DNA from: Thermodesulfovibrionales bacterium
Lineage (GTDB): Bacteria; Nitrospirota; Thermodesulfovibrionia; Thermodesulfovibrionales; SM23-35
DNA length: 64,000 nt
Assembly: GCA_030019415.1 (NCBI GenBank)
Contig: JASEEX010000006.1
Span: 693-64,692, forward strand
Direction: 5' to 3'
Part shown: positions 4,344 through 7,956 of the stretch, piece by piece
Numbering within the stretch: position 1 is the stretch's first letter
Layout: each line of letters opens with the position of its first letter
The notes under the pieces: generated by a model
Seen by the model: the letters and a program-made list of their open reading frames with translations, nothing else
Told to the model about the DNA's origin: nothing
Databases searched by the model: none
Made by a program: the position numbers and the translations under genes

Positions 4344-4427
4344 AAATTAGCAATTATCAATGCAAAATTATCAATAAGTTTTAACTTGATAATTGTTAAT
4401 TGATAATTTTAACTTGCAATTAAACCT
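4344..4427. repeat. AT-rich imperfect palindrome in the hypB-hypF spacer
   Basis: Arms are built from TTATCAAT / ATTGATAA-type units around the centre AAGTT-TT-AACTT (about 4376-4387). Confidence 0.6.
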
Positions 4428-6836
4428 TTGAGCATGGGATCTCGCAAAACTGATTTATGGTTAATGAAACCCAGGGTGAAGATATTAGTCAGGGGAATTG
4501 TCCAGGGAGTTGGCTTCAGGCCCTTTGTTTATAGCCTCGCCAGAACTTTGAATCTCAAGGGCTTCGTGATGAACTCATCCAGGGGTGTTACTATCGAGAT
4601 AGAAGGTAACGATAGCTCCACCTTTATCGAGAGGCTTACCAGAGAGGCCCCACCTCTTTCACAGATAATGGAAGTTGATATAATTCCCATGCCCTATCAT
4701 GGTTATCAGGATTTTCAGATAGTCAGGAGTGAGGACGAAGGGAGTTTCACCCTCATTTCTCCAGATGTCTCGTTATGCGAAGACTGCTTGAGGGAGCTGC
4801 TGGATAAGAATGACAGACGTTACCTCTACCCATTTATAAACTGCACGAACTGCGGTCCAAGATATACAATAACAAGATCCATTCCTTATGATAGACCAAA
4901 CACCACCATGTCTGTTTTTCAGATGTGCCCTGAATGCGAGAAAGAATACCATAATCCAGAAGACAGGAGGTTCCATGCCCAGCCGAATGCATGCCCCATC
5001 TGTGGACCTCAGGTCCAGTTAAAAGTTAAAAGTGAAAAGTTAAAAGTTGATGAAAAAGAGAATCCACTAAGGGAAACAATAAGACTTCTAAAGCAAGGAT
5101 ATATTGTTGCCATAAAAGGGCTGGGGGGGTTCCATATAGCTTGCGATGCAACTAACGATGAGGCAGTAAAGACGTTGAGATTAAGGAAGAGAAGGAGTAA
5201 CAAACCCTTTGCCCTGATGGCTCCTGATGTTATAACAATAAAAAAGTTCTGTGAGGTATCTGAGGAAGAAGAGATGCTCTTAATTTCTAACAAAAGACCG
5301 ATTGTGCTACTTAAAAAGAGGCAAAACTCTCTTCCTGATGCAGTTGCACCGAATAACCCCTGCCTCGGCTTCATGCTTCCCTATACACCGCTGCATTACT
5401 TGCTTTTTTACTATCCGACCCCCCCTGTGCCCTCCCTTGCTAAGGGGGGGATTGGAGGGGTGAATTTCGATGCCCTTATCATGACGAGTGGCAACCTCTC
5501 GGAAGAGCCTATCGTCATAGACAATAATGAGGCTCTCTCTACGCTTTCAGGCATTGCTGATGCCTTTCTTATTCATAATAGAGATATTTTTATGCGGGTT
5601 GATGATTCAGTAGTAAGAGTCATCAGTCATCAGTCATCAGTCATCAGTCAAAAACTTTCAACTTTCAACTTCCAACTTTCAACTTTCTTCATTCGTCGTT
5701 CACGTGGATATGTCCCTGACCCCATTCCCCTTCATGAGGATGGCCCCGAGGTTCTCGGTTGTGGAGCTGATATTAAAAATACCTTCGCCCTTACAAAGGG
5801 AGGTTTTGCGATACCGAGTCAGCATATAGGTGATATGGAAAACTACGAGACATTAAACTTTTTTGAAGAGAGTTTAGAAAACCTGAAAGCTGTTTACAGG
5901 GTAAGTCCTGTGGCTCTTGCGTATGACCTTCACCCAGGGTATCTATCAACACAATGGGCATTGCGGCAGGAAGATATTGAAAAGGTAGGTATCCAGCACC
6001 ACTATGCCCATATTGCTTCTGTGATGGCTGAAAAGGGGATAAAGAGGAGGGTTATAGGTTTCTCCTTTGATGGAACCGGTTATGGCACTGATGGAAATCT
6101 CTGGGGTGGAGAAATTTTAATTGCCAATATAGAGGGGTTCGAAAGGGTGGGTCATTTTAGATATATTCCCCTTCCAGGGGGTGAAGTGGCAATTAAGGAA
6201 CCGTGGAGGACGGCCGTAAGTTATATCTGGAGTATGGCTCACGATAAGGCAATAGAGTATCTTGAGTCCATAGGCTTTCTTGAAAGATATGGTCATGAGA
6301 TGATAGGAAACATTTTGAGGGTTGTCGATAAAAAACAATTTTCACCCCTTTCATCAGGAGCAGGGAGGCTCTTCGATGCGGTCTCAACCATACTCGGGAT
6401 ATGTGACAAAAATACCTTTGAAGGAGAGGCAGCTATTGCACTTGAAGCCATAACGAGACCTGATGTAGTCGATGACTATCCTGTAGATATAAAATTCAGA
6501 GAGGCCATAGAGATTGATTTTTCCCAGACTCTTTTGAGGATTATAGAGGATTTAATAAAAGGAGAGGGTAAAGGTTTTATTGCATCTCTTTTCCATAACA
6601 CCGTAGCCACTGCTATTTTTAGAATTGCGCAGAAGCTCTCTTCCCTTTACATGATAAAAGAAGTTGTTCTAAGCGGAGGGGTATTTCAGAACATTTATCT
6701 CCTCGAAAGGACCATCGCAAGGCTTAAATCCATAGGAATGGAAGTCTATGTCAACGAAAAGGTTGCATGTAATGATGCCGGGATATCCCTCGGCCAGGCA
6801 TATATAATCAGGGAAAGGATAAAGGCAAGAAAATAA
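4428..6836 (+). CDS. hypF: carbamoyltransferase HypF
   Basis: Acylphosphatase domain (GIVQGVGFRPF), two CxxC zinc-finger pairs, YrdC-like (KGLGGFH) and Kae1-like domains. 802 aa. The start could instead be the ATG at 4434 or 4461. Confidence 0.95.
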   Translation: MSMGSRKTDLWLMKPRVKILVRGIVQGVGFRPFVYSLARTLNLKGFVMNSSRGVTIEIEGNDSSTFIERLTREAPPLSQIMEVDIIPMPYHGYQDFQIVRSEDEGSFTLISPDVSLCEDCLRELLDKNDRRYLYPFINCTNCGPRYTITRSIPYDRPNTTMSVFQMCPECEKEYHNPEDRRFHAQPNACPICGPQVQLKVKSEKLKVDEKENPLRETIRLLKQGYIVAIKGLGGFHIACDATNDEAVKTLRLRKRRSNKPFALMAPDVITIKKFCEVSEEEEMLLISNKRPIVLLKKRQNSLPDAVAPNNPCLGFMLPYTPLHYLLFYYPTPPVPSLAKGGIGGVNFDALIMTSGNLSEEPIVIDNNEALSTLSGIADAFLIHNRDIFMRVDDSVVRVISHQSSVISQKLSTFNFQLSTFFIRRSRGYVPDPIPLHEDGPEVLGCGADIKNTFALTKGGFAIPSQHIGDMENYETLNFFEESLENLKAVYRVSPVALAYDLHPGYLSTQWALRQEDIEKVGIQHHYAHIASVMAEKGIKRRVIGFSFDGTGYGTDGNLWGGEILIANIEGFERVGHFRYIPLPGGEVAIKEPWRTAVSYIWSMAHDKAIEYLESIGFLERYGHEMIGNILRVVDKKQFSPLSSGAGRLFDAVSTILGICDKNTFEGEAAIALEAITRPDVVDDYPVDIKFREAIEIDFSQTLLRIIEDLIKGEGKGFIASLFHNTVATAIFRIAQKLSSLYMIKEVVLSGGVFQNIYLLERTIARLKSIGMEVYVNEKVACNDAGISLGQAYIIRERIKARK
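5018..5052 (+). repeat. (GTTAAAA)-type heptamer tandem array inside hypF
   Basis: gttaaaa gttaaaa gtgaaaa gttaaaa gttgatg, translated as LKVKSEKLKVD. Confidence 0.7.
5419..5460 (+). repeat. G/C-run hairpin element in frame inside hypF
   Basis: CCCCCCCTGTG, then CCCTCCCTT-GCT-AAGGGGGGG (9-bp stem with one T.G pair), then ATTGGAGGGG. Encodes PPVPSLAKGGIGGV. Confidence 0.6.
5619..5688 (+). repeat. two abutting heptamer arrays inside hypF: (GTCATCA)x4.5 then (CTTTCAA)x5
   Basis: Read directly from the sequence. Translated as VISHQSSVISQKLSTFNFQLSTFF, between the conserved DDSVVR and RRSRGYVP blocks. Confidence 0.8.
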
Positions 6837-6872
6837 AGTTTAAAGTTAAAAGTTAAAAGTTAAAAGTTAAAC
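6837..6872 (+). repeat. (GTTAAAA)x4-5 heptamer array in the hypF-hypD spacer
   Basis: aagtttaaagttaaaagttaaaagttaaaagttaaa directly after the hypF stop. Same unit as at 5018. Confidence 0.8.
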
Positions 6873-6885
6873 GGATAAGGTACTT

Positions 6886-7956
6886 TTGATGAAGAACATA
6901 ATAAAAAAGATAAGTGATTTAATGGATTCCATCGGCAGACCTGTAAGGCTCATGGAGGTATGCGGGACGCATACTGTAGCAATATTCAGACATGGCATAA
7001 GGGAGATTCTCCCTGAAGGCATTATCTTCCTGAGTGGCCCAGGCTGCCCTGTGTGTGTTACCCCGATAAAAGATGTGGATACTGCTATTGCTATTTCGAA
7101 GATGAATGACTTTATCCTCGCTACCTTCGGAGATATGATGAGGGTGCCTGGAAGTAAGCAATCTCTTTATCATGCACAGGCAGAGGGTGCTGATATAAGG
7201 GTTGTCTATTCCTCAATGGATGCATTAAAACTTGCATCAGAAAATAAAGAGAGGAATATTGTATTCTTTGCAACAGGTTTTGAGACAACATCGCCATCTG
7301 TTGCTGGAACCCTCTTTGAGGCAGAAAGGATAGGGGTTGATAATTTTTATATATACTCCGCGCATAAGACAATTCCTCCAGCCATTAAGGCCCTCCTTGA
7401 TTCTGATGATGTTAGGGTAGAAGGTTTTATTCTCCCCGGACATGTGAGCACAATTATAGGGAGCAGACCCTATGAATTTATAGCATCTGATTATAGAGTG
7501 TCCTCGGTCATAACAGGTTTTGATGCAGAGGACATACTTCAGGCTATTATGATGCTCCTTGAACAGATTGCATCTGGCAAGCCAGCTGTGGAGATTCAAT
7601 ATAAGCGTGCAGTGAGAGAGGAGGGCAATCCGAAGGCCGTATCTCTCATGAATGAATACTTTGAGCCACGCAATGCGAACTGGAGGGGAATAGGGATGAT
7701 TCCCCGGAGCGGATTGAGATTGAGGGATAAGTTCGGACGCTGGGATGCCGAAAAGTTATTCCATATTGATATTCCAGATTCTAAGGAACCAAAATCCTGC
7801 ATCTGTGGCTCTGTCATAAGGGGAGCCAAGATACCGACAGATTGCCCCCTCTTTGGAAGGGCCTGCACTCCCGAAAGGCCTGTAGGTGCATGTATGGTTA
7901 GCACTGAAGGAAGCTGTGCAGCATATTATAAGTATTCAGGGGTATATCGTGGATAG
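6886..7956 (+). CDS. hypD: hydrogenase maturation protein HypD
   Basis: MEVCGTHT, GPGCPVCVTP and FETT motifs, and a C-terminal Cys cluster. 356 aa. Confidence 0.95.
   Translation: MMKNIIKKISDLMDSIGRPVRLMEVCGTHTVAIFRHGIREILPEGIIFLSGPGCPVCVTPIKDVDTAIAISKMNDFILATFGDMMRVPGSKQSLYHAQAEGADIRVVYSSMDALKLASENKERNIVFFATGFETTSPSVAGTLFEAERIGVDNFYIYSAHKTIPPAIKALLDSDDVRVEGFILPGHVSTIIGSRPYEFIASDYRVSSVITGFDAEDILQAIMMLLEQIASGKPAVEIQYKRAVREEGNPKAVSLMNEYFEPRNANWRGIGMIPRSGLRLRDKFGRWDAEKLFHIDIPDSKEPKSCICGSVIRGAKIPTDCPLFGRACTPERPVGACMVSTEGSCAAYYKYSGVYRG

Follow-up and report, generated by a model that had tools for sequence, protein, structure and literature searches.

Heptanucleotide repeat arrays carried in frame at a hairpin tip of HypF in a Thermodesulfovibrionales genome

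Introduction

HypF is a carbamoyltransferase and a conserved metallo-enzyme maturation protein. The hypF gene considered here (4428..6836, forward strand) lies in a 64,000-nucleotide (nt) stretch of DNA from a Thermodesulfovibrionales bacterium of the Nitrospirota (GenBank assembly GCA_030019415.1, contig JASEEX010000006.1, positions 693 to 64,692 of the forward strand), which is called the window and numbered from its first letter. Within the gene, two adjacent tandem arrays of seven-nucleotide units, (AGTCATC)x4.7 and (AACTTTC)x5.0, are translated as part of the protein. Non-triplet simple repeats in the interiors of essential genes are expected to be purged or else to serve as on/off switches. 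Here, a conserved maturation protein holds three heptamer arrays and a mini-palindrome in frame. The two adjacent arrays are likely to be non-adaptive repeat filler that evolves concertedly and is tolerated at the tip of a HypF hairpin, as one local case of the heptamers of about five units found throughout the lineage.

Heptanucleotide units form the commonest class of long simple sequence repeats (LSSRs) in many prokaryotes, and repeats in coding regions are most likely to have units that are multiples of three, according to those parts of Mrazek et al. 2007 that are relayed in PMC4679880. Slippage at the polymerase footprint of about 7 nt has been proposed as the cause of heptamer LSSRs (PMC4679880). 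The genome that carries the hypF arrays resembles both these LSSRs and the short tandemly repeated repetitive (STRR) sequences of cyanobacteria in having many dispersed arrays of tandem 7-nt units with several unit sequences. It differs from the LSSR survey, as relayed, in that more than half of its heptamer arrays lie inside long ORFs and its host belongs to the Nitrospirota. STRR sequences in the strict sense belong to heterocystous hosts and are mostly intergenic, neither of which holds here. The comparison with them in the initial annotation, which had been made from the letters of the window alone, needs correcting on both points, since the host is a Nitrospirota metagenome-assembled genome (MAG) and 124 of its 229 heptamer arrays lie inside open reading frames (ORFs) of at least 150 amino acids (aa). 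In the literature library searched, no paper connects heptamer repeats with Nitrospirota or Thermodesulfovibrio.

The TAACTGA repeats of marine Beggiatoaceae, with 169 sets in the 'Maribeggiatoa' draft, lie for the most part between genes, and those inserted in ORFs are found chiefly towards the ends of the proteins (MacGregor 2015, PMC4679880). They share with the arrays described here an ACT/AGT-core heptamer and a population of well over a hundred arrays, and the few that overlap ORFs do so in a stop-free orientation (PMC4679880). In contrast to that single dominant and mostly intergenic unit, the genome studied here contains 94 distinct units, and its arrays occupy internal loops of enzymes. 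An AGT/ACT core is common to cyanobacterial STRR units, TAACTGA and the units of the hypF genome.

The neuO gene of the Escherichia coli K1 prophage CUS-3 is a proven switch in which 3-53 units of AAGACTC stand at the 5' end of a capsule-modifying gene (PMC13001214). Of 64 complete genomes, 65.6% have the gene OFF, and mixed repeat lengths have been measured within a culture (PMC13001214). Both neuO and hypF contain a coding heptanucleotide tandem repeat, and a full-length product is made only at unit numbers that keep the frame. Unlike neuO, hypF encodes a cytoplasmic enzyme and carries arrays of about five units in mid-gene, with no OFF allele at the site in 163 loci of relatives. Thus, hypF has the in-frame non-triplet unit of a neuO-type locus and lacks its common out-of-frame alleles and its long pure tract.

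Rickettsia palindromic elements, which Ogata and colleagues are said to have described in 2000, are reportedly small repeats inserted in frame in protein genes. As with these elements, the hypF repeats look like selfish repeat DNA that survives in frame in the surface loops of conserved proteins, and a palindrome at 5415-5462 of the window is of this kind. The heptamer arrays differ from them in being tandem and without a hairpin, and they change by unit number and homogenisation rather than by transposition.

Two heptamer arrays in a HypF hairpin loop

The left array, (AGTCATC)x4.7, occupies 5618..5650 on the forward strand, where Tandem Repeats Finder (TRF) reports period 7 with 100% matches. 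It encodes V398-Q408 (VISHQSSVISQ), the rising side of an extended hairpin tip, and the sequence of its unit is free of stop codons in every sense frame. A spacer of two bases (5651-5652) separates it from the right array, (AACTTTC)x5.0, at 5653..5687 on the same strand, for which TRF reports period 7 with 92% matches. The right array encodes L410-F420 (LSTFNFQLSTF), and its sole imperfect unit is cttccaa. Translation of HypF through both arrays reads DDSVVRVISHQSSVISQKLSTFNFQLSTFFIRRSRGYVP, and residues 398-420 stand in the context DDSVVR-VISHQSSVISQKLSTFNFQLSTF-FIRRSRGY. The resulting peptide has a period of 7 aa, with VISHQSS/VISQ followed by LSTFNFQ/LSTFF. The initial annotation had named the units in the rotated forms GTCATCA and CTTTCAA, and its coordinates, its peptide and its placement of the arrays within HypF agree with TRF and with the translation of the 802-codon ORF.

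A run of 26 successive lag-7 matches at about 0.26 each has a probability of roughly 1e-15 per start site, which excludes a chance origin of the arrays. The reverse complement of the right-array unit is AGTTGAA, and the AGT core therefore lies on opposite strands in the two arrays. An RNA or DNA hairpin formed by these opposed strands was considered and rejected, since 5605-5700 folds at -3.3 kcal/mol with a z of -0.73, a stability matched by 40 of 200 shuffles. The palindrome at 5415-5462 is a separate element; the heptamer arrays themselves are neither palindromic nor hairpin-forming.

The window HypF aligns end to end with three solved HypF structures, 3vth, 4g9i and 3tsp, all of which show a gap of 15-19 residues at the array-encoded segment. 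The linker between the DDSV and RGY motifs measures 37 aa in the window versus about 21-22 aa in these structures. In outgroup HypFs of less than 52% identity it has a median of 21 aa and a range of 21-26 aa. These gaps and outgroup lengths bear out the statement in the initial annotation that the two conserved blocks are normally joined by a much shorter linker.

An AlphaFold model from an alignment of 98 diverse sequences reaches a mean predicted local distance difference test score (pLDDT) of 90.8 and a predicted template modelling score (pTM) of 0.90. An earlier model from 47 close relatives had a pLDDT of 59 and was uninformative on the loop. In the 98-sequence model, strands 395-398 and 419-423 form a beta-hairpin whose tip is coil. 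Internally, pLDDT drops below 50 at three places only: 402-415, within the heptamer insert, and 336-338 and 340-342, within a GC-rich insert. The hairpin lies at the C-terminal end of the YrdC-like domain, with PF01300 ending at residue 406 and HypF_C beginning at residue 439. The array-encoded segment is thus modelled as the disordered tip of the last beta-hairpin of the YrdC-like domain. The gap in the three structures and the low pLDDT at 402-415 agree with the suggestion in the initial annotation that the site is a tolerated loop. As in the Rickettsia elements, the insert occupies a surface loop, is missing from homologues and leaves frame and fold intact, as judged from the structure gaps, the model and the outgroup linker.

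Turnover of the loop among relatives

The 120 closest HypF proteins share 70-84% identity with the window protein and range in length from 765 to 935 aa. Their alignment contains four hypervariable blocks, at query residues ~202-206 (site 1), 296, 334-341 (site 3) and 400-415 (the hairpin loop, site 4). The DDSV..RGY linker is 17-72 aa long in these proteins, and among relatives of at least 52% identity its medians are 32-39 aa with a range of 17-71 aa. Its contents fall into peptides with a 7-aa period, such as ISQKSIVNSQK and LSTLNSQLSTL, peptides of GC-rich palindromes (NPPxPPFxKGGxGG), and unrelated sequence. Other heptamer units in the linker DNA of relatives include CTCCGCA, CCGTCAC, AGTGCGG, CCAGTAC, CTTCACG, and AGTTCAA together with GAACTAT.

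Of 90 distinct long linkers, 18 show lag-7 periodicity, compared with none of 58 short linkers and 15 of 1630 control pieces of hypF of the same length. Periodicity was defined by a windowed score of at least 17/21, which replaced a strict count of perfect runs that had under-counted arrays. These counts and the varied units indicate that the loop is a long-standing hotspot and that most of its inserts are decayed arrays.

The nearest relative, locus L081 of GCA_040753955.1, has the same synteny as the window. Its conserved hypF blocks are 90-100% identical to those of the window at the DNA level, and 98 of the 100 bases just upstream of the arrays match. In the array block itself, 50 of 75 positions are identical and there is a 6-nt gap. 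The left array of L081 opens with AGTCATC and continues as AATTAAA units, and its right array consists of GACTCCC instead of AACTTTC with the register unchanged. At site 1 of L081, an 87-nt GC-rich element sits inside an AGTTAAA array. A second comparison involves L083 and L084, which are 94.6% identical and differ in the loop by exactly aactctcaactctcaactctc, a clean indel of 21 nt, 3 units and 7 aa. Together, the unit replacement in L081 and the L083/L084 indel point to concerted evolution, in which gain and loss of whole units homogenise the arrays and only frame-keeping outcomes persist. The comparison with relatives that the initial annotation had called for therefore reveals change by whole units over evolutionary time.

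At site 3 of L081 (~7090-7180), another small hairpin (CGCAGGCTGAAGCCTGCG, peptide RRLKPAA) is followed by a GACTATC array and replaces the palindrome of the window. The RRLKPAA peptide recurs at the site 3 loop in many relatives, which suggests a second family of mini-elements.

Reading frame at the arrays

By tblastn, hypF lies in one frame in 160 of the 163 loci of relatives, and none of the 163 is out of frame at the site corresponding to 5618-5687. An apparent frameshift in L063 is a scaffold gap of Ns. A hypF gene split at a heptamer array is present in L076:3546-3573, which equals L133:1146-1173; the two are one sequence in two assemblies of a distant relative, Nitrospirae bacterium CG1_02_44_142. 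The break falls at an (ATTCAAG)x4 array at site 1, on a domain boundary, and divides the gene into ORFs of 202 aa and 666 aa. Adding one unit restores a frame of 846 aa and removing two gives 839 aa, while removing one gives 229 aa. Whole-unit slippage can therefore break hypF, in nature or in assembly, and the earlier expectation that a change of one unit would shift the hypF frame is realised at a hotspot other than the paired arrays. The second ORF of this split gene has its own ATG and spans the YrdC-like and Kae1-like domains; on sequence grounds, it might give rise to a truncated HypF.

A third in-frame array in the window gene bears directly on frame selection. The array (AGTTAAA)x4.6, detected by TRF at 5017..5048 on the forward strand, lies at site 1, the linker between the zinc finger and the YrdC-like domain (~aa 197-207), and encodes QLKVKSEKLKV. 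Its third unit is AGTGAAA, with a G at 5034, where AGT-TAA would give an in-frame stop. The occurrence of this substitution at the exact stop position is a direct sign of translation and of selection on frame and stops in the arrays. The corresponding residues, 202-206, form a hypervariable column block among the 120 relatives. The peptide KLKVKSEKLKV is common to many relatives.

Heptamer arrays across the genome

Period 7 is the dominant repeat class of the genome. It accounts for 229 of 641 TRF rows in 1.94 Mb, alongside 123 rows of period 14 and 28 of period 21. Conserved enzymes are among the products of the ORFs of at least 150 aa that enclose 124 of these arrays. The copy number is 4-5 in 187 of the 229 arrays, and the median array length is 33 nt. 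The commonest of the 94 distinct units is AGTTAAA, with 28 arrays. AGT or ACT is present in 61% of units versus 17.5% of random genomic 7-mers. Simple slippage does not explain the narrow peak in copy number or the shared AGT/ACT core, and the arrays may conceivably have a dedicated origin.

Addition or removal of 1-2 units in silico at each of the 229 arrays revealed no clearly frameshifted gene at any of them; 12 were flagged, with their arrays in spacers or overlapping gene ends. An (AAGTCAG)x7.3 array at C124:2533-2583 stands where same-strand frames of 196 aa and 254 aa overlap. Removing one unit or adding two fuses these frames to ~415-420 aa, so that the locus could be either a gene frameshifted at a heptamer array or two overlapping genes.

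Origin and maintenance of the hypF arrays

If the arrays are tolerated filler, an ancestor of the clade would have acquired the pair in this loop. From then on, whole units would be gained and lost continually through replication slippage or unequal exchange, a process for which the 3-unit indel and the homogenisation of sister lineages to different units provide an indirect basis. Selection on HypF would purge variants that shift the frame or create stops, consistent with the in-frame state seen at the site in all relatives. Survivors would be net changes of three units (21 nt, or 7 aa) made up of stop-free units only. The 23 residues 398-420 would form a disordered or loosely structured extension that leaves the fold undisturbed, as the model and the gaps against solved structures indicate. 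Where slippage ceases, arrays would decay by point mutation to ordinary loop sequence, which appears to be the state of most relatives now. Out-of-frame variants should still occur in the population and would constitute mutational load rather than a used switch.

Several observations weigh against this account. The left array is 100% pure, which implies that it is either young or actively homogenised and that frameshifting slips occur at some rate. The hypF of L076/L133 is broken by a whole-unit change, so that such events can rise to the consensus. Simple slippage alone does not predict a copy number so tightly centred on 4-5 among units so diverse in sequence. Because the frame data are assembly consensus, they may hide an OFF subpopulation of low frequency, and intact genes are over-represented both in MAG consensus sequences and in database gene calls.

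The initial annotation had put forward the arrays as a potential contingency site. In a contingency locus, slipped-strand mispairing would reversibly shift the hypF frame, and a subpopulation would toggle maturation of [NiFe]-hydrogenase much as the AAGACTC repeat of neuO does. The unit is not a multiple of three and stands in the middle of a single-copy gene, the [NiFe]-hydrogenase large subunit of the genome requires the Hyp machinery, L083 and L084 differ at this very site by whole units, and the split hypF of L076/L133 returns to an 846-aa frame when one unit is added. However, none of 163 loci is out of frame at the site, whereas 65.6% of 64 genomes have neuO, with its 3-53 units, in the OFF state (PMC13001214). 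The hypF arrays have only 4.7 and 5 units, one of which is imperfect. Inserts in relatives are mostly decayed, with lag-7 periodicity in 18 of 90 long linkers, which argues that repeat purity is not under selection. Similar arrays occupy more than a hundred ORFs of 150 aa or longer, including many housekeeping genes, with no clear OFF state. HypF is also cytoplasmic, and its gene lies upstream of hypD and hypE in an operon. Phase variation at the hypF arrays is mechanically feasible, yet unsupported, and the arrays are probably no switch. A contingency locus in actual use is very unlikely, given that arrays are spread over some 100 ORFs of at least 150 aa, that their tracts are short, that relatives show decay and that OFF alleles are lacking.

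An unlikely alternative, although one that addresses the origin of the arrays, is a dedicated lineage-specific process, possibly templated or mobile, that recognises the AGT/ACT core and installs or re-templates modules of ~35 nt and ~5 units. Such a process would continually rewrite the surface loops of essential enzymes such as HypF, and in-register unit replacement would be its product rather than that of slippage. It would account for the sharply peaked copy number (187 of 229 arrays at 4-5 units, median 33 nt) and for the AGT/ACT core in 61% of units versus 17.5% of random 7-mers despite 94 different units. It would also fit the AGTCATC unit (VISHQSSVI), which is found at site 4 here and at site 1 in relatives P0118 and P0052, and the wholesale replacement of units between near-identical genes with register and length kept. 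Conversely, the clean 3-unit indel in an otherwise identical array is classic slippage or unequal exchange. The left-array units of relatives are graded (AGTCATC, AGTCAAG, AGTCAAT, AGTCAAA), as fits a homogenised inherited array. Neither an enzyme nor a mobile element is associated with the arrays here, and the five-unit peak could stem from selection on loop length combined with the detection floor of TRF. Still more doubtful than either of these accounts, and highly improbable, is the view that the clade gained the insert under selection for structure or function, for example as a longer beta-ribbon for partner contact, with the repeats incidental. In its favour, most of the clade retains a lengthened linker (median 37-39 aa among proteins of at least 60% identity), and the left and right arrays, similar in length and separated by a short Q-K turn, would extend the hairpin symmetrically. 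Nevertheless, linker length varies (17-72 aa), the peptides are unrelated and the same loop may even contain another type of element, many clade members have a short form of 22-23 aa, and the model has no confident structure at 402-415.

Under the tolerated-filler account, hypF illustrates, in a clear natural case, how the dynamics of repeats and selection on the frame jointly create and renew loop sequence. In relatives, these loops have changed again and again, either by 7-aa steps or through replacement of the whole unit, against a background of 90-100% identity in the remainder of the gene. The hypF case contributes an in-register unit replacement in a near-identical pair, a clean 3-unit indel and one natural allele frameshifted by a whole unit. 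By itself, a repeat on which the frame depends is not evidence of phase variation in a free-living bacterium. For annotation, these dynamics account for the HypF length range of 765-935 aa in the clade and for one split hypF gene call.

The hypF operon and neighbouring repeats

The hypF ORF comprises 802 codons from TTG 4428, and the database gene call begins 16 codons downstream, giving 786 aa. All five HypF Pfam domains score above cut-off in its product: PF00708 (Acylphosphatase), PF07503 (zf-HYPF, in two stretches), PF01300 (Sua5_yciO_yrdC), PF17788 (HypF_C) and PF22521 (HypF_C_2). They follow the order expected of HypF, with an acylphosphatase, two zinc fingers, a YrdC-like domain and a Kae1-like domain of two subdomains. 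The best structural match is the solved HypF 3vth (E 5e-215, residues 19-796 aligned). The gene is present in a single copy, as the sole PF17788 match across the 1.94 Mb genome, which is 100% complete.

The gene order is hypA-hypB-hypF-hypD-hypE, with HypA, HypB (cobW), HypD and HypE (AIRS) encoded by the neighbours. No hypC was seen between hypF and hypD, and the rest of the genome was not searched for it. A client of the Hyp proteins is the [NiFe]-hydrogenase large subunit (NiFeSe_Hases) at C78:31957-33357. The closest HypFs all come from Nitrospirota or Thermodesulfovibrionales MAGs, which indicates that the host is not a cyanobacterium. The window HypF forms a cluster of one member in the protein collection, and the next match is 84% identical.

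The GC-rich palindromic mini-element (CCCCCCC...GGGGGGG / CCCTCC...GGAGGG) at 5415..5462 on the forward strand is translated in frame at site 3 (~aa 330-345, PTPPVPSLAKGGIGGV). It corresponds to a 15-aa gap against 3vth, and pLDDT falls below 50 within 336-342. Copies related to it occur elsewhere in the genome, for example at C93:3734-3778, with 89% identity over 46 nt. NPPxPPFxKGGxGG peptides like its product occur at HypF sites 1, 3 and 4 of relatives, where they are often nested in heptamer arrays.

TRF also detects arrays on both sides of the gene. An array of period 7/14 (TTAATTG / ATAATTTTAACTTG) at 4374..4416 lies in the hypB-hypF spacer and is largely conserved in L081. An (AAAGTTA)x5.3 array at 6835..6871 begins at the stop codon of hypF and takes up the hypF-hypD spacer; it belongs to the same unit family as the array at 5017-5048.

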